64,000 bases of DNA from a bacterium (GTDB lineage Bacteria > Patescibacteriota > Andersenbacteria > UBA10190): contig JAUYKA010000008.1 of assembly GCA_030698495.1 (NCBI GenBank), positions 78,895 to 142,894 of the forward strand, read 5' to 3'. The notes beneath the pieces are model-generated. The model had not been told where the DNA came from. It worked only from the letters and a program-made list of their open reading frames with translations, and searched no databases. Both the position numbers and the translations under genes were made by a program. Numbering within the stretch: position 1 is the first letter of the stretch; each line of letters opens with the position of its first letter. Positions 8,977-59,207 of the stretch are shown here, in pieces.

Positions 8977-10042
8977 GGTAAGCTTCCTTTCTGGTATGGT
9001 ATAGAATCTCTTCGAAAATCATCCGGTTACGGTGCAGCATGTCGGCTAATAGGGATTGGAAGATAAGTAAAAATCCGACGATGATTAATACGCTGGAAAG
9101 TTGAACAAGGGAGCGGTACGGATAAGTTTGCCCGGTATAAATAAAATGAATAAGAAGAAACAGTCCGCCTATAACGCCAATAAGAAAAATAATGAGGCCG
9201 GGCAGGCCGAAAAAATATTGGGGACGATAATCACGAGCGGCGCGAAAAATAATAGTAGCCGCTTTCATACCGTAACGCCAAAGATTAGAGGCTACGCGAG
9301 ATTGGCCGTGTTCTCTTTCTCCTTTTATAATTAGCGGGATTTCCATCATGGCCATGTTTTTAAAGGCGAGATCGATAAAAGTTTCCTGCGTGTATGTAAA
9401 ATGCCCAAAAAGAGTGAGCCTTAGGGCGGCTTCTCGTGAATAAGCCCGAAATCCGCAAGAAACGTCAGTAAGGTTTTTCTTGGTAATAAAATTGATAATC
9501 CTGGTCATCCAGCGGTTGCCCCAGATTTTTATTAACGGCATGTCGGGAGTTGTGCCGGGATCGGCAAATCTGGTCGCGGTTACCAGAGAGGCTTCGCCGT
9601 GTTGGATGGGAGCAATGAGTTTGGGAATATCTTGAGGGTTAAATTGACCGTCGGCGTCCATATTGACAATAATATCGGCACCGTGATAAAGCGCCTCTTT
9701 AAGTCCGGTTTGAAAGGCTGCGCCAACCCCTAAATTATGAGTATGGCGAATAACAAAAGTGCCGGCTTGTTCGGATAAAACGGCTGTCTGGTCGGTTGAT
9801 CCGTCATCGATAACAACTACGTCAATGTCTGATATTCCGCTTAATTTTAGGGGTATGTCGCTGACTACTTTGGCAATTGTTTTTGCCTCGTTTAAGGCGG
9901 GAATTACAACAACCAGTTTGCAGCACTTAGTCTGGTATTCATTCATGGTTTCGTTCATCAGAACACCAGGTTTGGCGTTAAGCGATCGGGGACTTTTAGA
10001 GTCATGAGAGGTGGTTTCGGGGAGATATGGCATTGGATTCAT
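8954..10042 (-). CDS. glycosyltransferase family 2 with C-terminal TM helices (GtrB/DPM-synthase-like)
   Basis: 362 aa; VVIPALNEAKTI ... IDDGSTDQT ... DADGQ; two C-terminal TM segments; the real start may be the internal Met (MNETMNEY). Confidence 0.7.
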   Translation of the reverse strand: MNPMPYLPETTSHDSKSPRSLNAKPGVLMNETMNEYQTKCCKLVVVIPALNEAKTIAKVVSDIPLKLSGISDIDVVVIDDGSTDQTAVLSEQAGTFVIRHTHNLGVGAAFQTGLKEALYHGADIIVNMDADGQFNPQDIPKLIAPIQHGEASLVTATRFADPGTTPDMPLIKIWGNRWMTRIINFITKKNLTDVSCGFRAYSREAALRLTLFGHFTYTQETFIDLAFKNMAMMEIPLIIKGEREHGQSRVASNLWRYGMKAATIIFRAARDYRPQYFFGLPGLIIFLIGVIGGLFLLIHFIYTGQTYPYRSLVQLSSVLIIVGFLLIFQSLLADMLHRNRMIFEEILYHTRKEAYREQKTKR

Positions 10043-10134
10043 GGTAATACAAAAAACGAATTGATACTATAGCGCGGTAAGAAGACTGATATATATTTGG
10101 GCATTCTGGTGAAGTTTGTTATTATGGGGAGAGT

Positions 10135-11574
10135 ATGAAGAAAATTATATTTATTGGATTGGCGGCAGTGATAATGCTGTTGGTGGGGGAAGTGAGGACA
10201 GCCGATGCTGCCGGTCTTAGTGATCGGGTAAATGAAGCTTATAGGAAGATCTATAGCGTTAATCCAACACCAGCGGAAAACATCTATTGGTTGGGGCGTG
10301 TTGTTAAAGGAGAGAAAAAGACGTTTGAGGCTTTAGTTGGGGCCATTGCTTACCAAAGAGCGTTAGGCAATAAGCCGGGTGTGGCGGTGACACTAAAAAC
10401 GGGTGGTAAAGTGAATGGGGTAAAAGATGATAAACAGACAATGACTGTACAGACGCTGCCTCTGTTTGTAAAAATATACGGAAACGATCCAACGAACACA
10501 GAGAAAGCCTGGTGGCGGAAGCGGATTTCCTGTGGTGAGATAACCAGCATGAAGGCACTGGAAAATTCCATGCTTTATCATAAGAGCAAGGGTGCCCGAA
10601 AAGGGTCGGACACAATTTGTGGTCAAAAAGGAAGCAGTGGTTTATCAAGCAGCGGGGTCACAAGCCGACAGGTGGCCGGCGTGTCCACGCACCCGATGGG
10701 TGATCAAGTAAGGATTGGTATTTTTAATACTAACGGGTCCGCGATAAAAGTTACGGCGGATAATAAGTTTCAAATCAGAGAAGGGGCGTCAAAAATTTTG
10801 GCGACGTTGGGAAAAGAGGATGATGTACAAGTGAGTTGGTCGGGCGGCAAGTATCATGTACGCGGCTCGGGAATCGAGCTTGATACGACTAATATAATCA
10901 GGTTGGTTCCGCTGAATCAGGGGATTATGCAAATTAAAAGCTATAATGATAAGTCCACTACGATAGCGGGCAAAAATTATAATCGGTTCCGCGGCATTAT
11001 CGAAATACGCAAATGCGATGGCTGCAATGAACTGTGGGCGATAAATGAATTACGAACGGAATATTACTTGCGTGGTTTGGCGGAGACTTCGGGCGACGGG
11101 CCGGAAGAATACATTAAAGCGCTTGGTGTAGCGGCTAGGACTTACGTTTTGTATCATAAAGTAGTGACAGGGGGAAGAAACACGGCGAAGGGGTATGATA
11201 TCGGTAGAACACCGGATGATCAAATTTATCGCGGTTATGAATATGAAATTATTACGCCGCGCATGGCCAGTATATTTAATCAGGTAAAAGGTATTATCGC
11301 GACTGATGGTGAAGGTGATACGCCGGTATCAACGGTGTATTTTTCTGATTCTGATGGGCGTACGCGCAGCGCAAAGGAAGCTTGGCAAACAAGTCGCTTT
11401 CCTCACTTACAGAAATCCGTTGAAGATCCGTATCATGTCGCTTCGAGTTGTAATGGACACTGCGTGGGTATGAGCGCGCAAGGAGCGTATGGTTTCGCGG
11501 GGAAGGCCGGTTGGACTTGGCAAAAAATCTTAAATTATTATTACAGCGGAATTAAGCTGGTAAAGGCGTACTAG
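10135..11574 (+). CDS. secreted SpoIID/LytB-domain protein (peptidoglycan lytic transglycosylase/amidase enhancer family)
   Basis: 479 aa; signal peptide (MKKIIFIGLAAVIMLLVGEVRTADA); LRTEYYLRGLAETSGDGPEEYIKALGVAARTYVLYH matches SpoIID core; SD-like GGGGAGAG upstream. Confidence 0.65.
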   Translation: MKKIIFIGLAAVIMLLVGEVRTADAAGLSDRVNEAYRKIYSVNPTPAENIYWLGRVVKGEKKTFEALVGAIAYQRALGNKPGVAVTLKTGGKVNGVKDDKQTMTVQTLPLFVKIYGNDPTNTEKAWWRKRISCGEITSMKALENSMLYHKSKGARKGSDTICGQKGSSGLSSSGVTSRQVAGVSTHPMGDQVRIGIFNTNGSAIKVTADNKFQIREGASKILATLGKEDDVQVSWSGGKYHVRGSGIELDTTNIIRLVPLNQGIMQIKSYNDKSTTIAGKNYNRFRGIIEIRKCDGCNELWAINELRTEYYLRGLAETSGDGPEEYIKALGVAARTYVLYHKVVTGGRNTAKGYDIGRTPDDQIYRGYEYEIITPRMASIFNQVKGIIATDGEGDTPVSTVYFSDSDGRTRSAKEAWQTSRFPHLQKSVEDPYHVASSCNGHCVGMSAQGAYGFAGKAGWTWQKILNYYYSGIKLVKAY

Positions 11575-11687
11575 AGCAAGGTAGGCAGGGTAAGATATAA
11601 GCAAGGTAAGTATTATGGGAAATGCCGATAGTGTTTTTGTGCTTTATGTGTTAATAGCTAAGGTTACTTATCGGGTATAATAAAGCA

Positions 11688-12818
11688 ATGAAAATATTGT
11701 TAATCGCGGAAAATTGGCCGCCAAGACAGGGCGGAATCGAGAGGTACTTGAGTAATCTGGCCACCTGTTTGGGGCAAGATAATGACGTGACGGTTATCGC
11801 GCCGCATAGTGTTGGCGAGGAAAGTAGTTCGGTAAAAGTAATTACGAAAAGATTTTTTTGGCCGATAATAAAGCCGGCTTGGCTGCCGCTATGCATTGGT
11901 GTTTATCGCCTGGCAAAGAAAGAAAGATTTGATGTGGTTTTATGCGGGAAGGCTTTGTTTGAGGGGCAAATAGCTCGCTACTTAAAACGATATTTTCAGA
12001 TACCGTTTGTAGTTTTTACTTATGGCATGGAAATTAAGACTTGGCAGAGTCAGAGGCGAAACAGAAGAAAGTTGATGACCGTATTGCGGGCTGTTGATAT
12101 AGCGGCCTATATAAATAATGAAACAAAAGATGATTTATCCAGTTTAGGAGTAGCGGATAGCAAATTAATGAAATTGACACCGGCAGTTGGTGAGGAGTTT
12201 TTGAGATCCGTGCCGGAAAACAAGGTTGTCGGGGTGTTGGAAAAAACCAATGTGGCCAAGCCGTATGTTTTATCCGTAGGCCGGTTGGTGAAGCGTAAGG
12301 GATTTGATCAATTGATTGAAGCGTTCGCACAAGTTGAACAAACAAGATATGGCGACTGGAGCTTGGTTGTTGTCGGGGACGGACCGGAAAAAACTGATCT
12401 TGCAAACATGGCGGAAAAAAATCTGATCGGTAAAAGAGTAATCTTTACCGGCGCGATTGATGATATGTATCTGCGTTTGTTGTACGGCCAGGCGGGTTTT
12501 TTCGCGCTGACGCCTAAAAATTTGCCGAACGACATCGAGGGATTCGGTATTGTTTATCTGGAAGCGGCGGCTTGCGGCTTAGCTGTATTGGCAACTAAAA
12601 CCGGCGGTGTCACGGAGGCAGTAGTTGACGGCGAAACGGGAATACTGGTTGGGCGGGATAATATTAAGGCAATAACTGTGGGGCTGGAGAGATTAATGTT
12701 GGACGCGCAGAAGAGAAGTTGTTTGGGTGAAAACGGGAAACGGCGGGTCGAAAATGATTTCCGCTGGAGTCAGAGAGCGAGTCAATTAGTCGAAGAGATA
12801 CAAAAACGTCTAGGTTAA
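11688..12818 (+). CDS. glycosyltransferase family 4
   Basis: 376 aa; EGFGIVYLEAAACGLAVLATKTGG motif. Confidence 0.7.
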   Translation: MKILLIAENWPPRQGGIERYLSNLATCLGQDNDVTVIAPHSVGEESSSVKVITKRFFWPIIKPAWLPLCIGVYRLAKKERFDVVLCGKALFEGQIARYLKRYFQIPFVVFTYGMEIKTWQSQRRNRRKLMTVLRAVDIAAYINNETKDDLSSLGVADSKLMKLTPAVGEEFLRSVPENKVVGVLEKTNVAKPYVLSVGRLVKRKGFDQLIEAFAQVEQTRYGDWSLVVVGDGPEKTDLANMAEKNLIGKRVIFTGAIDDMYLRLLYGQAGFFALTPKNLPNDIEGFGIVYLEAAACGLAVLATKTGGVTEAVVDGETGILVGRDNIKAITVGLERLMLDAQKRSCLGENGKRRVENDFRWSQRASQLVEEIQKRLG

Positions 12819-17461: not shown

Positions 17462-17570
17462 AATTGTCTTGTTGACTAGATAATTTATAAAGTTATACGC
17501 TGTTTGGGTGTTGTTTGGGGTTGTTTTTTTGACAATTTACATGTGTTCCCCAGTTCAAGAAGGAGCTGAT

Positions 17571-18479
17571 ATGGGTACAACGGGAGTGAATACAGCAGAT
17601 AACACTGTTGATCAGTTGGTTTTTGAGTCAGGTTCAGTTGGGGACGTGGCCGTCCATAACCTATTAATGGGCGGTCCGGGAGGCATACCTTTGTATCAGG
17701 GCACTCTGCCGTTGACGCTGTATCTGAAGCAGTTGGCGTCGCTATATGCGGGACAGGAAGAATTCAATACTGGCCTGGTGCCGTGTGGGATGAATGTTCG
17801 GGCAACGTATCAACGTTACGGAATGACTGTTTTTCTGGTTGAAGTTGCCCCCAGTACCAGAACGCTCAAGTGGATAAGGGATGATTCCCCTGCGCCGTAC
17901 GGTAATGAAGCAACTTACTGTGATGCTTGTATTTCTTTGCCGTACCAATATTTCTTTGTGACGATTGATAATATGACGATTGATAACTCGCCGAGGCTGA
18001 CTAGCCATAACAGTGTTTACTTTGCTAATCAGCCTATCACCAGTTTGGATGAGCCGTTGGGGGAGTGTCATTTTCACAACTGTTCCGTGAACGCCTATAG
18101 TTTGCATTGTTGGATTTGCACTCAGTGGTTATCCGGAGATATGGGGCTAGGCAAAAACCCTGCACCTATGCAGTTGGTGGCTGCGTTCATTGAGTGGTTC
18201 TACGCTTCTGGCTTCAATCGCAGCTCTGATTTTCACGAAGGAACCAGTTTCTGGAGCCGGAACAGACAGGAGCTGGGCGATAAGCGTTTGGAGAATATTG
18301 CCGCCTGGAAAAGGGCGTCATCTAGAAATCCTGGGTTTGTGCTGCGGGTGAAGTGGCGTCCTAGCTTAACGGCAAGGGAAGTACTTGAGGAGCTGACCAG
18401 AATACCGGACCGCCGCCCGTCGGGATTACTTGATTTGGTTAATATTTACCGCGCAGCGACGTCTAGGCGGGGAGGATAG
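17571..18479 (+). CDS. uncharacterised Cys/His-rich protein; possible UBC-like (E2-like) fold; ends in ...RRGG
   Basis: Start chosen at ATG preceded by AAGGAG (track ORF starts 17508). Segment YFFVTIDN...SHNSVYFAN...ECHFHNCSVNAYSLHCWICTQWLS...PMQLVAAFIEWF resembles the UBC HPN-loop/catalytic-Cys/helix arrangement; first gene of operon with E1-like gene. Confidence 0.3.
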   Translation: MGTTGVNTADNTVDQLVFESGSVGDVAVHNLLMGGPGGIPLYQGTLPLTLYLKQLASLYAGQEEFNTGLVPCGMNVRATYQRYGMTVFLVEVAPSTRTLKWIRDDSPAPYGNEATYCDACISLPYQYFFVTIDNMTIDNSPRLTSHNSVYFANQPITSLDEPLGECHFHNCSVNAYSLHCWICTQWLSGDMGLGKNPAPMQLVAAFIEWFYASGFNRSSDFHEGTSFWSRNRQELGDKRLENIAAWKRASSRNPGFVLRVKWRPSLTAREVLEELTRIPDRRPSGLLDLVNIYRAATSRRGG

Positions 18480-18540: not shown

Positions 18541-19353
18541 ATGTTTCAGGAAAGAAACGACGACTGGCTACAGGGGGTGTTGCCGGCGGAAGCGCCGCTC
18601 GTTGGCGTTGGTTTGGGTGGAATTTGCGAAGGTTGGTTGCCTAACGTATTGCTGTACATGCAGGCGGGTGTTTTGCCGCTAAAACGTGTCATCCTTGTTG
18701 ATGGCAAGAAGTTTTCTGCCCATAATCATGGCCGCCAGAACTTTCGGAATGAGGCTAATAAGGCCGAGGAGAGAAAAGTGATGTGGGGCGCTATGTACCC
18801 CACTCTGCCGATATATGCGGTTGGCCAGTTTGTGGATGAGCACAACATTGCGCAGTTTATTCCCGAGGGCACAGTGGTGTTGCTGTCTCCAGACAATCAT
18901 CCGACACGAGCATTGTTCGCCAGGCATGTCAGCACGCTGAATAACGCTCTGTTGATTTGCGGCGGTAACGATGGTATTAATAAGGAAGGAGGGGAGGATG
19001 GTACCCAGGGTTGGGCAGCGATTTACTGCCGAAGGGCAGGAATGAACGTAACTGCACCACTAACGACGTATCATCCGGAAATCGCGGAAGCGTCTGAAAA
19101 AATGCCGTCAGTAATGAGCTGTATGGAATTGGCGCAAGCCGGACAGCCACAGCTGCTGGCAACAAATCTGCACGTTGGACAAATAATGGCATATCTGTTG
19201 CATCGTTATCTGACCATGCCTTTAGGGCAAGCGTTGGAAGTGGTGGAGCAGAGATGCAATATTGCCACAGGGGAAGTCGTTCGGTTTGGTATCCGCGAGC
19301 GTTTCGCGGATACGGTGTTTTGTCTGGGTCACGAGAAAGGAGAACCATCATGA
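18541..19353 (+). CDS. E1-like ThiF/MoeB-family adenylyltransferase (non-canonical, no CxxC zinc motifs, no rhodanese)
   Basis: Start at ATG after GGAGG. GVGLGGICEGWLPNVLLYMQAGVLPLKRVILVDGKKFSAHNHGRQNF matches the E1 nucleotide-binding loop and the D-x8-N-x2-RQ adenylation motif; LSPDNHPTRALFARHVSTLNNALLICGG matches the downstream E1 block. Confidence 0.6.
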   Translation: MFQERNDDWLQGVLPAEAPLVGVGLGGICEGWLPNVLLYMQAGVLPLKRVILVDGKKFSAHNHGRQNFRNEANKAEERKVMWGAMYPTLPIYAVGQFVDEHNIAQFIPEGTVVLLSPDNHPTRALFARHVSTLNNALLICGGNDGINKEGGEDGTQGWAAIYCRRAGMNVTAPLTTYHPEIAEASEKMPSVMSCMELAQAGQPQLLATNLHVGQIMAYLLHRYLTMPLGQALEVVEQRCNIATGEVVRFGIRERFADTVFCLGHEKGEPS

Positions 19354-19688
19354 CCAAGACACTGGCAAGCGGTGCGGTGCTGTTGAGAACGCGGCGCATC
19401 GAACGTGTGCGCCCGGGCGAAGACCACACACTCGTCGTGAAGCACGGCGGATCGAGTGCCTGCCTGCGCTTCAACGAGGCGGTCTCCGTTACGGACCTGG
19501 CCAGCTACTGCACGGGACAGCTCGGCTGGTCAGTGGAGGGCATGGCCTTCGTGGTTGACGGTCAGCGCTACGAAGCGAGCCAGGCAGACGGGATCAGGGT
19601 GGATGCCAGTACCAACAAGGTTGAGTTGGGACATCCGGTGGTGCCGAGCAACCTCGAGTTCGTGCGCAAGGTCGGCGCCAAGGGGTAG
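19350..19688 (+). CDS. small protein (112 aa), GC3-rich foreign codon usage, C-terminal Gly; candidate beta-grasp/ubiquitin-like partner of the E1-like protein
   Basis: ATGA overlap with E1-like gene; about 63% GC versus about 50% surroundings; pattern ...FVVDGQRY...DGIRVDASTNKVELGHPVV loosely ThiS/MoaD-like; ends ...VGAKG. Confidence 0.35.
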   Translation: MTKTLASGAVLLRTRRIERVRPGEDHTLVVKHGGSSACLRFNEAVSVTDLASYCTGQLGWSVEGMAFVVDGQRYEASQADGIRVDASTNKVELGHPVVPSNLEFVRKVGAKG

Positions 19689-19735
19689 TAAGCTCTGCCC
19701 TGCCGTTCTTTACAGGCTTGCAAGGCAAGCAAATT

Positions 19736-19770
19736 AACCGTTGGACACCCGTTCCAACGGTTTTTCTTTT
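19736..19770 (+). terminator. rho-independent terminator of the 17.5-19.7 kb operon
   Basis: AACCGTTGGA-cacccgt-TCCAACGGTT stem-loop followed by TTTTTCTTTT. Confidence 0.7.
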
Positions 19771-19780
19771 GTATAAGATT

Positions 19781-22366: not shown

Positions 22367-23380
22367 TTAAAATCCTCGTCTTATTTTACGCCAGTAGTCG
22401 ATTGCCCATAGTTGACGGTAGCGCCAAGATAGGGGCAGATCATGGGCGTGCAGGTAATCGATAGCGCGTCCGCCGAAGCCTTTTTTAAAAACAGTAATGC
22501 CGGCGAAGGGGTGATGGGGTTTATCGTCCGGAGCGATGCCCCAGAAGTTGTATAGTTCAGCCCCTCTTTTTTGGGCTTCCAGAATAGAGTGCCACTGCAG
22601 AAGCTGGGCGCCAGGAATTTTGCTTACTTTTATGGAAGCACCGTGGTGATAAAAAACTTTGTTGCCGCATTGAATAAAAATACCGGCAGCTATGTCTTTG
22701 CCTTGATAGGAAGCAATGACGGCGTAGGCGGATTTGGTGCCGGAGAATTGTTGAAATTCTTCGCGGATTGAGTCAATGGAAAAGGGGACAAAGCCATGGC
22801 GTACGGTGGTGACTTGGTATAGCGGGGCAAAGTGATCGATGGCTGATTGATCTGTGATTACAAAGCAGGTTACGCCCATTTTTTCAGCTTTATTGATTGC
22901 TTGGCGACTGGTTTTGCGCATATTGGCCAGTAATGTTTCCGCTGGCAAATTGATATCCAATATCCAAGTAAGTTCACTGTGAATATGAAGCGGGGCAGGT
23001 TTGAAACCAAGTTGTTTTAATGTATCCCGGTTTGTTTGACTATTAATTAATAGCGGAGCCAGACGCAGGGCTAACACGCGGTCTTGGCGAGCGCGGGATT
23101 TAAGGTAAGAAATTATTGCGGGAAGATACTTTAAAGTTTGTTCTTCGGATAAAAATGCCGGTCCGTGGGGAATCAGGTAGTGGCGGCCGCGGCGGGCATT
23201 GACGATTATAATTTGGGCGAGGCCGATTAGCTGGTTATCGTTAAAGATGCCGAGGCGAATAATGTTTTCGCCGGATTTATTTTGGACTTCGCCCCACTGC
23301 CAAGTTTGGAGGAAGGTGTTTGGTGATAGAGTCAGGAGAAAGGAAGTCCATTGATTTCGGTCGGTGATTTCTTGGATCAT
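22367..23380 (-). CDS. FemAB-family peptidyl/aminoacyl transferase (peptidoglycan interpeptide bridge formation)
   Basis: Start moved to internal Met (MIQEITDRNQWTSFLLTLSPNTFLQTWQWGEVQ...) because the upstream 27 codons translate a GC-rich palindromic repeat; FemAB N-terminal W..F..Q..W motif pattern. Confidence 0.6.
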   Translation of the reverse strand: MIQEITDRNQWTSFLLTLSPNTFLQTWQWGEVQNKSGENIIRLGIFNDNQLIGLAQIIIVNARRGRHYLIPHGPAFLSEEQTLKYLPAIISYLKSRARQDRVLALRLAPLLINSQTNRDTLKQLGFKPAPLHIHSELTWILDINLPAETLLANMRKTSRQAINKAEKMGVTCFVITDQSAIDHFAPLYQVTTVRHGFVPFSIDSIREEFQQFSGTKSAYAVIASYQGKDIAAGIFIQCGNKVFYHHGASIKVSKIPGAQLLQWHSILEAQKRGAELYNFWGIAPDDKPHHPFAGITVFKKGFGGRAIDYLHAHDLPLSWRYRQLWAIDYWRKIRRGF

Positions 23381-23404
23381 AGAGTAACTTGTTTTTGATA
23401 ATCC

Positions 23405-23515
23405 GATCTCCCGCGGGTCCTGCCGCGCTCGAGCCCCCGCCCGACGGCTTCCCCCGCCCAAGGGCGGGGTGCAGGCGCTCGGCGGGGGACCCCCCAGCGC
23501 GTCACCCGCGGTGAA
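23405..23515. repeat. GC-rich palindromic intergenic element (family member 1)
   Basis: CCCCGCCC-aag-GGCGGGG hairpin, CCCGCGGG palindrome; shares the CCCCGCC...GGCGGGG / GCCCGCC...GGCGGGC hairpin type with copies at 26.7 kb and 59.3 kb. Confidence 0.5.
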
Positions 23516-23569
23516 AGCTTTATAGATATAAGTAAATATTGTGTCACAGTTCTTATAACCGGTTAATAA

Positions 23570-45129: not shown

Positions 45130-46479
45130 ATGCGAGATATACGACCACAGGGGCCGCGACGGCGGCCAAACAGAATGATACCGCCCCCAGCGGGCGAAGC
45201 TATGTTTGCGGTGCCAAAGGCTAAATTGCCGGGCGCGAGAGTACCGATCGCCAATGTGCAGGTGCCCAAGCCGTCTATTAGTCGTCCGTCGATACCGGGC
45301 GGCGGCGGACCGGGCCAACTGCGCTCCAGTGGAAAGATAAGGTTGGGCCAGAGAGAGAAAACGGTGGTGGCCGTAATTGTCGGTTTGGCTATTATAGCCA
45401 GCTTGATTGGTGTTATTATTTTTTTGCCAACAGCCAGAATAGAGCTGTCGCTAAAAACGGCGCCGCTTTTAGTTGACGAGAAGATGATAATTAAGGCGCA
45501 GGCTGATAGTCAGTCTAACGAGGTTCCCGGAACGGCTTTTTTTAGAGAAGTAACGGTTGACGGTTCGAGCCCGGTGCAAAGTACGGAAGTAATAGGAAGT
45601 AAAGCGGCCGGGGAAGTATATTTAGTAAACAGAAGTTTCGACGAACAGAAGATTAAGGAGAACAGCAGGCTGGTAACCAAGGACGATCAATTATTTTACA
45701 TGAAGCAGGCAGTGACTATTCCGGCCGCTACCAGCGGCGGTCTGGCGCGCGTGCCGGTAACAGTAGAGGCGGCAGAGGCCGGGGAGGCGGGCAATATCGA
45801 AGCGCAGCGGTTGGATTTCGCGGCTCTGCCGGAGGCGGCACAAGCGCTGGTTTATGCCGAGGCAGATAAGCCGCTGGATGGCGGGAGAGGTGACGAGGTT
45901 AAAGTTATTAAAGATGCCGACCTGGAAGCGGCTAAGAAAACCGCGGGACAGCAAGCACGGGATCAGGTGGAGCAGGAAATCCGCGATCAACTACCCAAAG
46001 GATGGACAATAATGGAAGAAAGCTGGACAGTGGATCTGGAATCTTTTGATACGGAAGCAAAAACCGATAGCCGACAGGAGACCGTGTCATATCAGGCAAG
46101 AGCGGCGGTACATGTGTTTGGTTATGAAGGGGCCAAGTTAGAGAATAAATTAAAGGATGCCTTGACAGCACGCTTGGATGAACAATATATGCTGTTCCCG
46201 GGGCCAATTTCTTACACGAAAAGCGTAGAGAACATTGACTGGGAAGTTGGTGAGGCTGATATATCAGCACGCGTGACGCACACTACCGTCCCCAAAATAT
46301 CACTGGATGTTTTGCGGGAAAAGCTAGCCGGCCGATCAAAAAGTGAAACGAAACAATACCTAGAGGGATTAACGGGGGTGCAGTCGGCGCAGATTGATTT
46401 GTGGCCGTTTTGGGTGAATGTCGTGCCGAGAATAGCCAATCGAATCAATATCGATTTACAGCCAGATAGGCAACCGTAG
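45130..46479 (+). CDS. hypothetical bitopic membrane protein with Pro/Arg/Gly-rich N-terminal tail and large extracytoplasmic domain
   Basis: 449 aa; single TM (VVAVIVGLAIIASLIGVIIFL) after basic/Pro-rich segment; no recognised domain. Confidence 0.4.
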   Translation: MRDIRPQGPRRRPNRMIPPPAGEAMFAVPKAKLPGARVPIANVQVPKPSISRPSIPGGGGPGQLRSSGKIRLGQREKTVVAVIVGLAIIASLIGVIIFLPTARIELSLKTAPLLVDEKMIIKAQADSQSNEVPGTAFFREVTVDGSSPVQSTEVIGSKAAGEVYLVNRSFDEQKIKENSRLVTKDDQLFYMKQAVTIPAATSGGLARVPVTVEAAEAGEAGNIEAQRLDFAALPEAAQALVYAEADKPLDGGRGDEVKVIKDADLEAAKKTAGQQARDQVEQEIRDQLPKGWTIMEESWTVDLESFDTEAKTDSRQETVSYQARAAVHVFGYEGAKLENKLKDALTARLDEQYMLFPGPISYTKSVENIDWEVGEADISARVTHTTVPKISLDVLREKLAGRSKSETKQYLEGLTGVQSAQIDLWPFWVNVVPRIANRINIDLQPDRQP

Positions 46480-47133: not shown

Positions 47134-47526
47134 ATGCCAATACGTATCAGCGGAATAAATTTACCAGATCAAAAGAGAGTGGTGATAGGCTTGACCAGTG
47201 TTTATGGTATTGGACGGCCTTTAAGCGCCAGGATTTTAAAGTTGTTGGGAATTGACGAGAATACAAAAACTAAGGAGTTAACAGCTGGCGAAGAACAAAA
47301 ATTGCGTGAGTATATTGAGCGCAATGTAAAGGTGGAAGGCGAATTAAGGCGCGAAGTGAGTATGAATATCCGTCGTTTAAAGGATGTGGGCAGCTACCGA
47401 GGCAGCCGACATATCAAAAAATTACCGGTGCACGGGCAACGCACAAAAAGTAATTCACGTACTGTCCGAGGGAATGTGCGGCGTACAGCGGGCAGCGGAC
47501 GAAAATCAGCTAGCGAGAAAACATAA
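47134..47526 (+). CDS. rpsM: 30S ribosomal protein S13
   Basis: RISGINLPDQKRVVIGLTSVYGIGRPLSARILKLLGID - S13 N-terminus. Confidence 0.9.
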   Translation: MPIRISGINLPDQKRVVIGLTSVYGIGRPLSARILKLLGIDENTKTKELTAGEEQKLREYIERNVKVEGELRREVSMNIRRLKDVGSYRGSRHIKKLPVHGQRTKSNSRTVRGNVRRTAGSGRKSASEKT

Positions 47527-47529
47527 TCT

Positions 47530-47925
47530 ATGACAGCGGAAAAAACAACAACGAAGAAAAAAAGTAAAAAAATTCGCAAGGTGCGCGAAGGGAGAGTTTA
47601 TATTCGCTCAACTTATAACAATACCCAAATAAGCGTTACGGACGCGGCGGGGAATGTATTGGTTTGGAGCAGTGCCGGCCGAGCCGGTTTTAACGGCGCT
47701 AGAAAATCAACTCCTTACGCGGCACAGAGAGTTATCGCTGATGCGATGGAGCGTTTAAAGCCGTTTGGTATGGAAGAAGCAAGGATTTACGTCAAGGGGA
47801 TTGGCAGTGCACGCGAGTCGGCAGTAAGGGCACTGGCGGCAGCGGGTTTATCGATTACATCAATTCGCGACATGACGCCGATTCCGCACAATGGCGTGCG
47901 GGCACCGAAGCGGCGGCGAGTCTAA
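47530..47925 (+). CDS. rpsK: 30S ribosomal protein S11
   Basis: GRVYIRSTYNNTQISVTDAAGNVLVWSSAGRAGFNGARKSTPYAAQ - S11. Confidence 0.9.
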   Translation: MTAEKTTTKKKSKKIRKVREGRVYIRSTYNNTQISVTDAAGNVLVWSSAGRAGFNGARKSTPYAAQRVIADAMERLKPFGMEEARIYVKGIGSARESAVRALAAAGLSITSIRDMTPIPHNGVRAPKRRRV

Positions 47926-47974
47926 CGCAGCCGGATAAGTTCAATAAGGAAGATAAGTTCATAAGTTTTAAGAT

Positions 47975-48529
47975 ATGGTGGAGACAACTACAACTCAAGC
48001 TAAACAGGGATCCCGTGGTGGCATGCGCCCGCCACAGAGACGGCGGCCGCATAGCCGATATGGGCAGCAAATGGAAGAGAAGCAGAATCTAAAGAAGATT
48101 TACGGCATCAGGGAACAACAGTTGAAAAAATATTTTGTGACGGCTCACCAATCAACGGTTGAAACCGGCCCTGGCTTAATTGAAATTTTGGAAAAGCGTC
48201 TGGATAACGCGGTATATCGTGCGGGATGGTCTCCAACCAGGGCTGCGGCCAGACAGTTAGTCAGTCATCGGCTAGTGACGGTTAACGGCCGTCCGGTTGA
48301 TGTGCCTTCTTTACAGGTTAAGGTTGGGGACGTAATCAGCATTAAAGAAAGCAAGAGAAAAAAAGCAATTTTTACAAATTTTACGAAAAGCCTGCAGAAC
48401 GTGGCCGCGCCAAGCTGGATTTTATTGGACCCGGAAAACTTTTCTTTTAAAGTAACCGGATTGCCGGGGGCGGATGAAGCGGGGCTGGGGGTGGACATAA
48501 GAGCAATCGTCGAGTATTTCGCCCGTTAA
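47975..48529 (+). CDS. rpsD: 30S ribosomal protein S4
   Basis: S4 N-terminal basic region + S4 RNA-binding domain (LDNAVYRAGWSPTRAAARQLVSHRLVTVNGRPVDVPS). Confidence 0.85.
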   Translation: MVETTTTQAKQGSRGGMRPPQRRRPHSRYGQQMEEKQNLKKIYGIREQQLKKYFVTAHQSTVETGPGLIEILEKRLDNAVYRAGWSPTRAAARQLVSHRLVTVNGRPVDVPSLQVKVGDVISIKESKRKKAIFTNFTKSLQNVAAPSWILLDPENFSFKVTGLPGADEAGLGVDIRAIVEYFAR

Positions 48530-48569
48530 TCCCGCCTAAATATAAAATTTATTTATTAATAACCTTGCC

Positions 48570-49535
48570 ATGGAACCAATTTACTTACCAGAAAACGTAG
48601 ACATCAGCGACGAATCTGATAACAGCGCGATATTTTCAATTTATCCTTATTACCCGGGATACGGTCCGACGGTGGGCAACGCTTTGCGCCGGGTATTACT
48701 TTCTTCATTGCCGGGTGCTGCGATAACTCACATGAAAATCGATGGGGTTGATCATGAGTTTTCAGCTCTGCCTGGAGTGAAAGAAGATTTGGTGAGCTTG
48801 ATGTTAAACCTGAAAAAGGTAAGGGTAGCGTCGGTGAGTGATCAACCGGTAGAGATTGTGCTGGAAGCTAAAGGCGAGGGCAAAGTTAAGGCAGGAGATT
48901 TCAAAACACCTCCGGAGGTAAGCATCGGCAATCCTGATCTGGTAATCGCGAATTTGACAGACAGCAAGGCTGAATTCACTTTACGTTGTACTGTGCAACA
49001 AGGGCGCGGGTATATACCGACGGAAACAAGAGAACGCGAGCAGCGGCCGATCGGTACAATTGCTTTGGACGCTATATATACGCCCGTGGAAAGAGTAAGT
49101 TATAAGATAGAAAATATCCGTGTAGGACAGGCGACGGATTACCACAAGTTAGCGTTAACTATTAAGACAGACGGTACAATAACGCCCCGGGAAGCTTTAC
49201 AGCAGGCGGCGTCAATTTTAACCGACCACTTCAAAGAATTGACAGGAGACTTTAGCGCTAATCTTACCGCGGACAGGCCGGAGGAAATACCAGAGGTTTC
49301 GGTAGAGCCGGAGCCGACAGAGCCGGAGAACACATTAAGCTTACTCCAGTTGCCTTCGCGTGTGCATAATGCACTGGAAAGAGTGGGAATTACTACCGTA
49401 GAACAAGTGGTGGAGCTTAGTGATGAACAAATTCAGGATATTCCCGGCTTAGGACAAAAAGCGGTGGAAGATATTAAGAAAAACAGAGCTAAATATATGA
49501 CTGAACACTTAAATCAATCAGCCGATGAAGCATAA
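48570..49535 (+). CDS. rpoA: DNA-directed RNA polymerase subunit alpha
   Basis: GYGPTVGNALRRVLLSSLPGAAIT; C-terminal domain LLQLPSRVHNALERVGITTVEQVV. Confidence 0.9.
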   Translation: MEPIYLPENVDISDESDNSAIFSIYPYYPGYGPTVGNALRRVLLSSLPGAAITHMKIDGVDHEFSALPGVKEDLVSLMLNLKKVRVASVSDQPVEIVLEAKGEGKVKAGDFKTPPEVSIGNPDLVIANLTDSKAEFTLRCTVQQGRGYIPTETREREQRPIGTIALDAIYTPVERVSYKIENIRVGQATDYHKLALTIKTDGTITPREALQQAASILTDHFKELTGDFSANLTADRPEEIPEVSVEPEPTEPENTLSLLQLPSRVHNALERVGITTVEQVVELSDEQIQDIPGLGQKAVEDIKKNRAKYMTEHLNQSADEA

Positions 49536-49881
49536 GAAGGCCAACCGAATATTGGGCCGGACAGCGCAACAAAGAAAGGCGCTACTCTCGAACATGACTA
49601 GTTCGTTGTTAGAACGCGGTCATATTGTCACGACCCGGGCGCGAGCCAAACAGTTACAGCGATTCTTTGATCCGCTGGTCACTCGCGCGAAACAGGAGAT
49701 GACATTGTCTAATCGCCGTTATTTGTTGTCAAAGCTGATGAAGGCCGGTGACATAAATAAATTAATTGAAGCGGCAGAGGCTAATAAAAGCAGGCCCGGC
49801 GGTTATTTGCGGTTGACAAAGCTGCCGACCAAGCGACAAGATCAGGCTACGACCGTTAAGGTGGAAATTATTACCAAGTAA
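49525..49881 (+). CDS. rplQ: 50S ribosomal protein L17
   Basis: LGRTAQQRKALLSNMTSSLLERGHIVTTRARAKQL - L17; follows rpoA. Confidence 0.85.
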   Translation: MKHKKANRILGRTAQQRKALLSNMTSSLLERGHIVTTRARAKQLQRFFDPLVTRAKQEMTLSNRRYLLSKLMKAGDINKLIEAAEANKSRPGGYLRLTKLPTKRQDQATTVKVEIITK

Positions 49882-49889
49882 GAATTTTT

Positions 49890-50321
49890 ATGTCAAAAGA
49901 AAGAGATAAAATACACAGGGAAGAACAGGTGGGCGAATGGCATTGGCTGGATGCCCAGGGAAAAATACTGGGCAGATTAGCGGGTGAAGCGGCGGTCTTA
50001 CTGGGTGGTAAGCATAGAACGGACTGGGCTGCCAATAAAGTGGCGCCGGTTTACGTAGTGGTAACAAACACAGATCGGGTGGTGGTAACGGGTAATAAGG
50101 AGAAAGATAAGATTTATTATCGACATACGGGTTACCCGGGCGGTTTGCGAGAGCGTTCGCTGGCAGTCCAAAGGCAGAGAGATTCGCGTAAAATCGTATT
50201 AGCGGCCGTAAGCGGAATGCTGCCGAAAAACAACTTACGTAAATTGCGCTTACAGCATTTAAAGCTATATAAAGGCAGCGAGCATCCGCATGAGGCGCAA
50301 ATTAAATCTAATTCTAAATAA
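49890..50321 (+). CDS. rplM: 50S ribosomal protein L13
   Basis: EWHWLDAQGKILGRLAGEAAVLLGGKHR... L13 pattern. Confidence 0.85.
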   Translation: MSKERDKIHREEQVGEWHWLDAQGKILGRLAGEAAVLLGGKHRTDWAANKVAPVYVVVTNTDRVVVTGNKEKDKIYYRHTGYPGGLRERSLAVQRQRDSRKIVLAAVSGMLPKNNLRKLRLQHLKLYKGSEHPHEAQIKSNSK

Positions 50322-50327
50322 AAGACT

Positions 50328-50735
50328 ATGGTAGAAGATCAAGCAGAGAAGAAAGGTACGTACGGACTTGGCCGTCGAAAAACGGCAATCGCACAGGTGA
50401 TGTTGACCGATGACGTGACAGTAAGGATTGTTAATAATAAGCCGGTGGATGACTACTTTCCAACCATCGCGATGAAGAAACAGGTATTGTCGGCACTGGA
50501 GACCACGTCAAAGGCGGAAAAATCAGGATTCAAAGCGAAGATCAGGGGTGGAGGTAAGCAGGCGCAGGCGGTAGCTTTGAATTTAGCGATTGCCCGGGCG
50601 ATTGTGAAAGATGACGAGTCTTTGCGCAAACAGTTGAAAGATACGGGCAGTTTAACTCGCGATCCGCGGGTTAAGGAAAGAAAGAAGTTTGGTTTGAAAA
50701 GAGCGCGCCGAGCACCGCAGTTCTCCAAGCGATAA
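50328..50735 (+). CDS. rpsI: 30S ribosomal protein S9
   Basis: GLGRRKTAIAQV ... C-terminal GLKRARRAPQFSKR. Confidence 0.9.
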   Translation: MVEDQAEKKGTYGLGRRKTAIAQVMLTDDVTVRIVNNKPVDDYFPTIAMKKQVLSALETTSKAEKSGFKAKIRGGGKQAQAVALNLAIARAIVKDDESLRKQLKDTGSLTRDPRVKERKKFGLKRARRAPQFSKR

Positions 50736-56570: not shown

Positions 56571-59207
56571 ATGGCTTGGTTAAATTTTATTAATCAACGA
56601 AGCCGCCATGAAAAGGCGGTGGATAAATATAAGCCGGTAGTAGAGAGGATAAACGCTTTGGAGCCGGAATTACAATCTCTGTCGGACAGTGAGTTGAAAG
56701 CGCGCGCGCAAAAATATAAGGGTAAGGATGTTGAAGCAATAAAAAAGGATAAGGATCAGGTTTTTGCTATTGTGCGCGAGGCGGCCAAGCGAAGTTTAAA
56801 AATGCGGCATTTCGACGTGCAGTTGATGGGCGGATTGGCGTTACTCGATCAGGCGATAGCGGAGATGAAAACGGGAGAAGGAAAAACTTTGGTGGCAACC
56901 CTGCCCTTGAGCCTGCACGCCTTAACGGGCAAGGGGGCACATCTGGTGACGGTAAATGATTATTTGAGCAAGCGCGATGCCGAGTGGATGCGGCCGGTTT
57001 ACGAGTTTCTGGGATTAACCGTGGGAGTAATCAGTCCGGGACAGCTGCCGGCGGAAAAACGAGAGGCTTACGCGGCGGATATTACTTACGGTACCAACAA
57101 TGAGTTCGGGTTTGATTATTTACGCGATAATATGGCGGTGCAGGCGGAAAATATGGTGCAAAGGCCGCTCTGGTACGGAATTGTGGATGAGGTGGACAGT
57201 ATTTTGATTGATGAGGCGAGAACACCGCTGATTATTTCGGCGCCGGACATGGAGTCGACGAGAATGTACCAGCAATTCGCTTCTTTAGTCCCGCAGCTAA
57301 AGGAAAATGAAGACTATAATATTGACGAGAAGAGACGGGCGGCGACCTTAACAGATGAGGGCGTGACAAAAGTTGAAGGGTTGTTGGGAGTTGATAATAT
57401 TTACGCGGAGAACGGCATCAGGCAGGTACATCATCTGGAGCAGGCCTTGCGGGCACAGACTTTGTATCACCGCGACAAAGATTATGTGGTGCGCGAGGGG
57501 CAAGTAATAATTGTGGACGAGTTTACCGGACGATTGATGGAGGGCCGGCGCTATTCGGAAGGACTTCATCAGGCCATAGAAGCCAAGGAAAAAGTGAAGG
57601 TGAAGCAGGAGAGCCGGACACTGGCGACAATCACTTTCCAGAATTTTTTCCGTCTTTATCCGTATTTGGCGGGCATGACCGGGACGGCAGTAACATCGGC
57701 CGAGGAGTTTGAAAAAGTTTACAACTTGGATGTGCTGGTGGCGCCGACAAATAAACCGCTGGTGAGAAAAGATTTACCCGACAGAATTTATGTTAACGAA
57801 CAAGCGAAGTTCATGGCTGTTATGAACGAGATAAAACAGCGCAATCAGAAGGGACAGCCAGTGCTGGTGGGCACTATTGCTATTGAAAAGTCGGAATATT
57901 TATCAGCGCTGCTACAGCGGGAGGGAATCAGGCACGAGGTTTTAAATGCCAAACATCATCAGCGCGAAGCAGAAATTATCGCCCAGGCAGGGCAAAAAGG
58001 CGCGGTGACAATTTCTACAAATATGGCCGGACGCGGGACGGATATTAAATTGGGCGAGGGTGTGGTTGATTTAGGCGGGTTATTGGTCATAGGCACGGAG
58101 CGGCATGAAGCACGCCGTATTGACAATCAGTTGCGCGGGCGATCGGGACGGCAAGGCGATCCGGGCGAGACACGGTTTTTTGTCAGTCTGGAAGACGATG
58201 TGATGAGAGTTTTCGGCGGGGACAGGTTAAAGAAAATTATGCAGACGCTGAAGCTGCCGCCGGAAGAAGCAATTGAGAGCCGGATGGTCAATCGGGCACT
58301 GGAAGGAGCGCAGGAGCGGGTGGAAGGTTATTACTTTGATATGCGCAAACAGGTTTTGTCTTACGACGATGTGCTTAACCGCCAGCGCAACGCCATTTAT
58401 ACTTTGCGGCGAGGAGTGATGCTGGAGGGAAAATGGAAAGAAGCAAATAAAGAGGCGGAAGGATTGGCGGAGCATATCGAGTCTTTGCTGGACGAGCAGG
58501 CGCGCCAGCTGGTTTTGATTCACACGGGCGAGGGCGGGCCAGACAGCTGGGATATAGAGGAGATTGCCGAGGCAATGCATTCGCTGACAGGGATTGATAT
58601 CGCGGCGGCGCGGTTGGATTACGAAAAGATTCTAGCGGAACAAAAAATGGGTCCGGAGGAGGCGCGCGAGGCGTTGGTTGATAGGGCGGCGGAACAGCTG
58701 CGGCAAAGGCTTTCGGCGCGAAAGGAAGAATTGGGTAGCGCCACGCTGGAGCAATTGGAGCGGGCAGCAACGATTCGTTCGATTGATATTCACTGGATGG
58801 ATCATTTGGATACAATGGATTACTTGCGTACAGGGATAGGCTTGCGCGGGTACGGCCAGCGCGATCCGCTGGTGGAATACCAGAAGGAAAGCTTTCAGTT
58901 GTTTCGGAATTTGCTGGCGACAATTAAATCCTCAATAGTGGAAGTGGTGTTTAAGGCAGAAGCGGTGAAGCAGGAGGCGGAGCATGGCGTGGCGCGGCAT
59001 GACGAGACTTCGGTTTTGTCAGCGGCGCAATCATCGCCTACGCCAAGCGCCGGCGGTCAGCTGGCAGCAGCCGCGCAGGCAGCCGGTTCGCAGACACTAA
59101 AGAATCCATATAAGGGAGTGGGGAGAAACGACCCATGTCCGTGCGGAGCGACTAAACCGGATGGCACCCCCAAGAAGTTTAAACAATGCCACGGTAGGAA
59201 TACATAG
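56571..59207 (+). CDS. secA: preprotein translocase ATPase SecA (with C-terminal zinc-binding tail)
   Basis: Start at internal ATG 56571 (MAWLNFIN... aligns with SecA N-terminus); MRHFDVQLMGG, AEMKTGEGKTL (Walker A); C-terminal CPCGATKPDGTPKKFKQCHG. Confidence 0.9.
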   Translation: MAWLNFINQRSRHEKAVDKYKPVVERINALEPELQSLSDSELKARAQKYKGKDVEAIKKDKDQVFAIVREAAKRSLKMRHFDVQLMGGLALLDQAIAEMKTGEGKTLVATLPLSLHALTGKGAHLVTVNDYLSKRDAEWMRPVYEFLGLTVGVISPGQLPAEKREAYAADITYGTNNEFGFDYLRDNMAVQAENMVQRPLWYGIVDEVDSILIDEARTPLIISAPDMESTRMYQQFASLVPQLKENEDYNIDEKRRAATLTDEGVTKVEGLLGVDNIYAENGIRQVHHLEQALRAQTLYHRDKDYVVREGQVIIVDEFTGRLMEGRRYSEGLHQAIEAKEKVKVKQESRTLATITFQNFFRLYPYLAGMTGTAVTSAEEFEKVYNLDVLVAPTNKPLVRKDLPDRIYVNEQAKFMAVMNEIKQRNQKGQPVLVGTIAIEKSEYLSALLQREGIRHEVLNAKHHQREAEIIAQAGQKGAVTISTNMAGRGTDIKLGEGVVDLGGLLVIGTERHEARRIDNQLRGRSGRQGDPGETRFFVSLEDDVMRVFGGDRLKKIMQTLKLPPEEAIESRMVNRALEGAQERVEGYYFDMRKQVLSYDDVLNRQRNAIYTLRRGVMLEGKWKEANKEAEGLAEHIESLLDEQARQLVLIHTGEGGPDSWDIEEIAEAMHSLTGIDIAAARLDYEKILAEQKMGPEEAREALVDRAAEQLRQRLSARKEELGSATLEQLERAATIRSIDIHWMDHLDTMDYLRTGIGLRGYGQRDPLVEYQKESFQLFRNLLATIKSSIVEVVFKAEAVKQEAEHGVARHDETSVLSAAQSSPTPSAGGQLAAAAQAAGSQTLKNPYKGVGRNDPCPCGATKPDGTPKKFKQCHGRNT

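Follow-up and report, generated by a model that had tools for sequence, protein, structure and literature searches.

Synonymous composition of a ubiquitin-like gene in an Andersenbacteria operon, and the possible replacement of its reading frame

Why should the last gene of an operon differ so sharply in its synonymous codon choice from the gene to which it is translationally coupled? The question is raised by a stretch of 64,000 nucleotides from the patescibacterial lineage Andersenbacteria (positions 78,895 to 142,894 of contig JAUYKA010000008.1, GenBank assembly GCA_030698495.1), the whole of which we call the window, and by a short gene in it whose product, of 112 amino acids (aa), is predicted to be ubiquitin-like (Ubl). 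The Ubl gene closes an operon that begins with a gene here called A and continues with a gene for an E1/ThiF-like adenylyltransferase (hereafter E1). Its third codon positions are far richer in G and C than those of the other genes of the window, whereas A and E1 resemble the host. The original prediction, made from the sequence, saw in this a compositionally foreign gene that had recently been acquired by horizontal transfer, or one under an unusual constraint. The answer that we give here is narrower and tentative: the Ubl open reading frame (ORF) may recently have been replaced by an ortholog from an operon of the same subclade in a GC-rich genome, an event that we infer from the composition of the gene and from that of its relatives.

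Composition of the Ubl gene

The Ubl gene has a GC content of 0.637, with 0.637, 0.469, and 0.805 at the first, second, and third codon positions (GC1, GC2, and GC3), whereas GC and GC3 are 0.476±0.032 and 0.493±0.040 in 61 other ORFs of this stretch. The sole other ORF near 0.60 is an alternative-frame ORF inside the Ubl gene itself. When the 64 kb were scanned in windows of 339 nucleotides (nt), the GC maximum was found at 19362 (0.643; mean 0.470, standard deviation [sd] 0.045), and for the 15,677 60-codon windows drawn from real genes, GC3 peaked at 0.70 outside the Ubl gene and at 0.83 inside it. The prediction that the third positions of this gene are unlike those of the rest of the window is therefore borne out. 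We also sampled codons from the host usage while holding the amino acids fixed (20,000 simulations). The expected GC3 of the Ubl gene was 0.506±0.046 and the observed value 0.802 (z=6.4), which none of the 20,000 simulations reached; the same test gave z=0.5 for A and z=0.9 for E1, both of which are thus host-like. Approximately two thirds of the GC excess of the Ubl gene over an average gene of the window lies at third positions, and approximately one third at positions 1 and 2.

The features of the operon, all of them on the + strand, are as follows.

17571..18479, + strand: gene A (302 aa), the first gene of the operon, with an alternative GTG start at 17508; GC3 0.525, host-like
18541..19353, + strand: E1/ThiF-like adenylyltransferase gene (270 aa), whose start the ORF list puts at TTG 18505; GC3 0.539, host-like
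19289..19313, + strand: strong hairpin in the 3'-terminal part of the E1 gene, with GGTGTTTTGT after it, ahead of the Ubl start by 37 nt
19337..19342, + strand: AAGGAG ribosome-binding site, read from the sequence, 7 nt upstream of the Ubl ATG
19350..19688, + strand: Ubl gene (112 aa), the last gene of the operon, with a protein ending in ...VGAKG
19736..19772, + strand: the operon's intrinsic terminator, with a stem of 10 bp and then TTTTTCTTTT; overall not GC-rich

The limits of the anomaly are those of the Ubl ORF. The TGA of the E1 ORF (19351-19353) overlaps the Ubl ATG, which begins at 19350, in an ATGA at 19350-19353. In blocks of 15 codons, GC3 steps from 0.53 and 0.40 in the last full E1 blocks to 0.73-1.00 in the Ubl blocks; in other words, the shift begins at most some 15 codons from the ATGA junction, where a jump had been predicted, and it finishes at the Ubl stop codon (TAG, 19686-19688), directly after the codon of the last glycine (Gly112, 19683-19685). 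The further expectation that GC would stay high through the terminator did not hold, because GC falls to 0.50 after the stop codon (19689-19740) and to 0.38 over the terminator (19741-19780).

Not only the amount of G and C but also the choice between them sets the Ubl gene apart. At 2-fold pyrimidine-ending sites, 20 of its 24 codons end in C (0.83), against 0.18-0.49 in all + strand host genes. Seven genes at 47134-50735, which we presume to be ribosomal-protein genes and rpoA, reach just 0.31-0.49 C-ending codons with a GC3 of 0.42-0.56, and selection of the kind that acts on translation in the host therefore cannot account for the Ubl value and was rejected as its cause. At 4-fold sites, G/(G+C) is 0.52 in the Ubl gene and 0.71 in the host (p=0.007), while E1 (0.68) is host-like and A shares the host skew. 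Over the whole window, these sites show a very strong strand asymmetry, with G 0.41 and C 0.17 in + strand genes and C 0.41 and G 0.15 in - strand genes; the majority of the genes lie on the + strand.

A specific RNA structure in the Ubl mRNA of the window was considered and rejected: its minimum free energy does not differ from that of synonymous shuffles (z=-0.04), so that no structure beyond composition was seen, and no Rfam family matched the segment. Other GC-rich coding patches of the window, at 45702-45890 and 58954-59099, are rich in Ala, Gly, and Glu; they are protein-driven, unlike the Ubl gene, because their GC1 is high (0.77-0.79) and their GC3 is merely 0.62-0.66. Three further ORFs overlap the Ubl gene on the same strand, namely an in-frame upstream extension from 19254, and ORFs at 19262..19558 and 19456..19737. 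Across the Ubl family, none of the alternative frames is consistently free of stops, by which a conserved overlapping gene was rejected, and the original view of these ORFs as spurious by-products of the high GC is a reasonable one.

The operon, its products, and its relatives

An exhaustive phmmer search of 1.84 billion representative proteins found 28 relatives of the Ubl protein, mostly of 100-130 aa, and a word-indexed protein search found the copy of the same strain alone. The sequence had no match in Pfam, NCBIfam, PADLOC, PHROGs, or the PDB sequences, even at E values up to 1 or 10. From an alignment of 24 sequences, AlphaFold2 gave a model (pLDDT 79.9) with a beta-beta-alpha-beta-beta core, and the top 50 Foldseek matches in the PDB are nearly all beta-grasp proteins, mostly ubiquitin-like, with a few superantigen toxins. 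The best match is ThiS (3cwi; E=6.6e-3, probability 1.00, target-normalised TM 0.65), and SUMO, ubiquitin, elongin B, and ISG15 are found among the others. No match lies under E=1e-3, which makes the support moderate, yet the matches agree with one another, and the model supports the assignment of the product as a predicted beta-grasp ubiquitin-like protein. The family conserves HTLVVKQGG, an invariant tryptophan (W60), D70-G71, and an EF motif, and 22 of the 24 members end in glycine, preceded by Lys, His, Arg, or Leu. A C-terminal di-glycine was not seen in the family, and the window protein ends in AKG. The predicted fold, the conserved terminal glycine, and the E1/ThiF motifs encoded upstream all favor the original proposal that this is the Ubl partner of an E1-like operon.

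Two further observations concern protein length. In locus L020, the Ubl gene (1312-1716, protein P0045) runs on for five residues, LSVAG, past the conserved KG; the extension hints at a precursor that would be trimmed by a JAMM peptidase. In the much longer proteins P0062, P0065, and P0069-P0071 (730-2355 aa), parts of the Ubl protein are matched by 3 to 10 stretches in tandem. These proteins could be poly-Ubl-like, or the likeness could come from a repeat unrelated to Ubl.

The E1 protein of the window matches Pfam ThiF (PF00899) with E=2.9e-4 and 20.5 bits, under the gathering cut-off of 28.1, and its NCBIfam matches, MoeB and ThiF, lie near 1e-3; PF00899 is precomputed on many of its homologues. 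A profile of 28 homologues finds ThiF (1zud) at 3e-6, and also Uba4, MoeB, and SAE2 (SUMO E1 subunit 2). The protein carries the motifs GLGGIxEG, LVDGKxF...NxxRQ, and LSPDNHxTR. In the 28 sequences, GLGGIxEG, NxxRQ, and SPDNHxTR show little or no variation, and by analogy with MoeB and ThiF we equate them with the Rossmann GxGxxG and the NxxRQ and DN...R nucleotide and Mg site motifs of E1 enzymes. An invariant cysteine is encoded at 19120-19122. These likenesses support the placement of the protein as a probable divergent single-domain ThiF/E1-like enzyme. GenBank annotates 237 aa of it, and the homologues support the longer form of 270 aa. Among 5.8 billion proteins, 42 homologues of E1 and 18 of protein A were found.

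Protein A conserves Cys and His residues, and its invariant residues include N-C-S...C-W-I-C. It is 49% identical to the product of the first gene of L003 and orthologous to gene A of seven loci. Against Pfam, NCBIfam, PADLOC, and PHROGs, it gave just sub-threshold noise (E 0.06-0.23); its AlphaFold model, for which database homologues served as the alignment (pLDDT 74.7), resembled no PDB fold in a meaningful way (TM 0.1-0.15), and its profile matched no PDB sequence. The protein ends in RRGG in the window (18465-18476), in QKGG in L014, and in WKGG in L015, and we considered whether this ubiquitin-like di-glycine end would make A a second substrate of E1; the idea was rejected because the ending is not conserved in most homologues.

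A locus search with the E1 alignment gave two genome loci and six metagenome loci. The gene order in homologous loci is A, B, E1, Ubl, and the E1-Ubl pair is kept in 15 loci. Gene B encodes a JAMM/JAB peptidase with the motif E...HSH...S..D (Prok-JAB was matched in seven of eight members) and is present in most of the homologous operons; it is absent from the window and from L016, which have the three-gene form. In the window, the gap between A and E1 is 61 nt, with no room taken by gene B. All the named hosts belong to the Candidate Phyla Radiation (CPR), namely Candidatus Andersenbacteria for the window proteins and metagenome-assembled genomes (MAGs) of Saccharibacteria for two loci, the other contigs being unassigned metagenome. 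It should be mentioned that genes for PrkA, DUF444, and SpoVR lie directly 3' of the Ubl gene in L003 (6249-11048) and L022 (3688-8130), so that either the hosts of these loci are related or the genes are linked. In L022, gene B was missed by the gene caller and is intact in another frame at approximately 1600-2400.

The locus itself is well supported. An independent assembly of the same strain (L001) is 99.96% identical over 8,358 bp, including the Ubl gene and both its flanks, and a contig from a second run (L002) encodes the exact Ubl protein (a match at the protein level). Records of the Ubl protein come solely from Logan assemblies, while A and E1 also have the NCBI names U1C49_03060 and U1C49_03055, in a MAG of Candidatus Andersenbacteria; the Ubl gene was probably missed in the GenBank gene calling. 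The neighbors of the operon in the window encode glycosyltransferases and YbjQ. The terminator at 19736-19772 gives a terminator match with -16.8 kcal/mol and z=-5.3 (none of 200 shuffles was equally good). The hairpin at 19289-19313, of 10-11 bp, gives a terminator-like match with -17.3 kcal/mol and z=-2.56 (5 of 200 shuffles were equally good) and is not present at the same place in L003, L018, L020, or L021. Its role might be that of an attenuator, or of a processing site by which the E1-to-Ubl ratio is set, or it might be there by chance.

Possible replacement of the ORF or a force acting in place

How much of this composition belongs to the family and how much to the window alone? At first and second positions, the Ubl gene has a GC1 of approximately 0.60-0.72 and a GC2 of approximately 0.42-0.51 in every host, whatever the GC of the host, and this constancy implies that the GC1 and GC2 part is protein-driven. 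The phrase "compositionally foreign" is apt for the synonymous sites. At third positions, the difference between Ubl and E1 in the 14 other loci has a mean of +0.085 (sd 0.049, range 0.00 to +0.156) and favors Ubl in 12 to 13 of the 14; a t-test gives p=2e-5, uncorrected for the shared ancestry of the loci, and by our own estimate the sd is about what sampling noise alone would produce. With amino acids controlled, the excess holds in seven loci (z=1.0 to 2.9 versus the operon partners). A family-wide force that raises the GC3 of the Ubl gene therefore exists. In the window, the difference is +0.267, which is 3.7 sd beyond the family offset and leaves an excess of approximately 0.18. The original prediction had held that the same bias in related genomes would speak against transfer: the relatives do share it in a mild form, but the window lies well beyond them. 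The most economical account is one of two stacked effects, a mild family-wide GC3 offset and an excess specific to the window.

We consider it a plausible, if tentative, explanation of this second effect that an ortholog from a closely related operon, residing in a GC-rich genome, recently took the place of the resident Ubl ORF. Such a donor genome would have a host GC3 of approximately 0.7 and a Ubl GC3 of approximately 0.8, and the incoming ORF would have yet to drift to the codon usage of the host, as A and E1 would already have done. An origin of the Ubl ORF later than that of its neighbors would best account for the window-specific excess, of which recent acquisition, as originally proposed, is the simplest reading. 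A GC3 of 0.805 is matched by the Ubl genes of GC-rich hosts (L015 0.805, L013 0.805, L017 0.786), while L022, which belongs to the same subclade as the window and has a host of similar GC (0.493), has a Ubl GC3 of merely 0.530 and an E1 GC3 of 0.524. The size of the anomaly, the share of C-ending codons beyond the range of the + strand host genes, and the absence of the strong G over C skew of the host from the 4-fold sites of the Ubl gene point in the same direction, as does the lack of a specific RNA structure, of an Rfam family, and of a conserved overlapping frame. That the operon family moves between genomes follows from its extreme sparseness and from locus L021, whose operon (10001-12790) is GC-poorer than its host (GC3 of B and E1 0.59-0.60 versus an expected 0.70-0.71, z about -4); this suggests a recent transfer of the L021 operon, with a mismatch opposite in direction to that of the window. 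The case of L013, a GC-rich operon on a GC-poorer contig, was dropped as evidence because the contig is compositionally patchy.

Several observations weigh against such a replacement. No donor lineage of the kind that the original prediction led one to look for was found in protein databases, plasmids, phages, or viral contigs: at the amino acid level, the closest Ubl protein from beyond the strain itself reaches 54% identity, and a blastn search of plasmids, a tblastn search of phages, and a scan of viral contigs were all without a Ubl match. The loci L003, L020, L021, L018, and L022 are the nearest for both Ubl and E1 (for Ubl, L003 at 54% and L021, L018, L022, and L020 at 51-53%), and the same loci are the nearest for A. 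Ubl and E1 identities correlate (r=0.73, 105 pairs), and the divergence of the window Ubl does not exceed what its E1 would lead one to expect (mean residual +4.7 points). With histories so congruent, any donor would have to come from that subclade and be as yet unsampled. The anomaly does not reach beyond the ORF, its 5' limit lying at most about 15 codons from the ATG and nothing clearly foreign lying downstream, and limits as narrow as these call for a near-exact cassette swap. The locus has neither mobility genes nor flanking repeats, the 64 kb contain no tRNA, and no repeats or duplicated copies were found in the window. The argument from skew is weakened, because the difference versus the operon partners alone has p=0.06 and a like shift toward C occurs in the Ubl genes of L020, L022, and L009. 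From the family-wide GC3 excess it follows that a force other than transfer acts on the Ubl gene, and it is a priori unlikely that so rare a system would be met a second time.

On the contrary, it can be argued that the Ubl gene was inherited together with A and E1, and that its third positions were driven to G and C in this lineage, either by selection at the level of mRNA or translation (a stabler or better-translated 3' segment, with more Ubl than enzyme per transcript) or by GC-biased gene conversion; this alternative, with which the unusual constraint of the original prediction stays viable, is the main rival and a serious one, though somewhat unlikely. It would draw on the family-wide offset and its amino-acid-controlled counterpart in seven loci, on the lean of Ubl genes toward C at 4-fold sites in several loci, on an anomaly coextensive with the ORF, on the congruent histories of Ubl, E1, and A, and on the hairpins that flank the Ubl segment on both sides (19289-19313 and 19736-19762). 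The Ubl mRNAs of L018 (599-946), L021 (12446-12790), and L014 (8775-9128) are moreover far stabler than their synonymous shuffles (z=-4.3, -3.95, and -2.5), but the window mRNA, at z=-0.04, is not. The extent of the departure from the family offset is a further difficulty, as is a Ubl GC3 of just 0.53 to 0.66 in L022, L016, and L014, whose hosts are of similar GC, and the t-test on which the offset leans ignores shared ancestry. The presumed ribosomal-protein genes of the host lie far below the Ubl gene in C-ending codons, and selection for G or C combined with the mutation bias of the host predicts a 4-fold G:C of approximately 0.7:0.3, against the observed G/(G+C) of 0.52. A more elaborate proposal, which we think unlikely, is that selection throughout the family favors G/C-ending, and especially C-ending, codons in the Ubl gene, which would set the Ubl-to-enzyme ratio at the mRNA level, and that the operon is at the same time an undescribed type of bacterial Ubl conjugation in the CPR (Saccharibacteria and Andersenbacteria), with the non-UBC protein A as an E2 substitute or a target; the window would then be the extreme of the trend, with no transfer.

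Two simpler explanations can be given very little weight. The richness of the protein in Gly, Ala, Arg, and Val might alone make the gene GC-rich, and GC1 and GC2 that hold constant in every host, the third of the excess at positions 1 and 2, and the existence of such patches elsewhere in the window (45702-45890 and 58954-59099) lend themselves to this; with the protein sequence fixed, however, GC3 still exceeds its expectation by z=6.4, so that the main effect is synonymous and the protein was rejected as a complete explanation, a role in which it is very improbable. More improbable still is an artefact, be it a chimeric metagenome assembly or an ORF that is no real gene. The window does come from a metagenome-assembled genome and the Ubl protein is recorded from Logan assemblies alone, but the independent assembly matches across gene and flanks, by which a chimera was rejected, and the exact protein recurs in a second run. 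The strong ribosome-binding site, the ATGA coupling, a conserved family in the same operon position in 15 loci, and a confident beta-grasp model all speak for a real gene.

Comparison with known systems and significance

What might such an operon do? By analogy with the pairs ThiF/ThiS and MoeB/MoaD and with the E1/Ubl pairs of the Bil and Bub systems (PMC11601596, PMC1779556), the E1-like enzyme would adenylate the terminal Gly112 of the Ubl protein, an activity to which the conserved pairing of the two genes also points. The Ubl protein would then be passed on, possibly as a thioester via the invariant cysteine of E1; protein A may be an acceptor, an E2-like carrier, or a target; and the JAMM peptidase B, where it is present, might trim extended Ubl precursors or reverse conjugation. 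The likeness to ThiS, MoaD, and ubiquitin with ThiF, MoeB, and E1 consists in a small predicted beta-grasp protein with a free C-terminal glycine, encoded beside a single-domain ThiF-like enzyme that keeps the GxGxxG, NxxRQ, and DN...R motifs and a conserved cysteine. Unlike those proteins, the window Ubl matches no sequence family and ends, as in its relatives, in Lys-Gly or His-Gly and not in Gly-Gly, and its family is approximately 110 aa long with an N-terminal extension; in contrast to the ThiS and MoaD systems, the operon contains no thiamine, molybdopterin, or sulfur-transfer genes, and the partners are the JAMM peptidase and the 300-aa protein A.

Among bacterial ubiquitin-like pathways, the Bil (bacterial ISG15-like) operons, which correspond to row 6d of Iyer et al. 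2006, combine Ubl, E2, JAB, and E1 proteins (PMC1779556, PMC11601596), and operon classes of this type are described as mobile or sparsely distributed (PMC1779556, PMC11601596). Our operon shares with them a four-gene logic (Ubl, JAB/JAMM, E1-like enzyme, and a fourth protein) and a sparse distribution. The E1 of Bil is, however, a multidomain protein of inactive and active adenylation domains and a Cys domain (IAD-AAD-CYS) (PMC11601596), whereas the E1 of our operon is a single adenylation domain of 245-270 aa; its fourth protein, A, has no match to the UBC/E2 fold or sequence, though a very divergent E2 is still conceivable; no PADLOC model matches the operon proteins; and the window copy is without a JAB gene. 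The Bub (6E/DUF6527) operons also encode a Ubl and E1-like pathway with a JAB peptidase that is variably present (PMC11601596), as in our family. They differ in that our operon has no DUF6527 protease, that its genes are separate, with no Ubl-E2, JAB-E1, or E2-E1 fusions, and that its E1 keeps an invariant cysteine, whereas Bub E1 proteins are without the catalytic one (PMC11601596). The operon fits no described Bil, Bub, or CBASS architecture and no curated model, and is a variant of the bacterial Ubl/E1/JAMM system. As for the replacement of a single gene by a xenolog or ortholog, the window resembles it in that one ORF is off the codon usage of the host while its translationally coupled neighbors are host-like, and departs from the typical case in the lack of a donor, of phylogenetic incongruence, and of insertion scars, and in that other genomes show, for the same gene, a weaker bias in that direction.

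One other element of the window should be recorded. At 23395-23520 on the - strand, between a DegT-like gene and a FemAB-like gene, lies an intergenic stretch of approximately 120 nt with up to 78% GC that forms one long hairpin (201-nt fold, -88 kcal/mol, z=-4.08), with no Rfam match and a single copy in the window; the real start of the FemAB-like gene is probably an ATG near 23380.

If the Ubl ORF was indeed replaced, the locus would be a clean case of the exchange of a single ORF within a translationally coupled operon, and the Ubl "cassette" would be one that can be swapped independently of its enzymes. If a constraint is the cause, it would be a small modifier gene with a synonymous-site signal conserved across hosts of 47-62% GC, which would point to control of stoichiometry at the mRNA level. 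Either way, a very rare Ubl/E1/JAMM operon family, with a protein A that lacks a recognised fold, is present in CPR bacteria with reduced genomes, and the locus widens the recently recognised diversity of bacterial ubiquitin-like pathways, of which Bil, Bub, and type II CBASS are examples.

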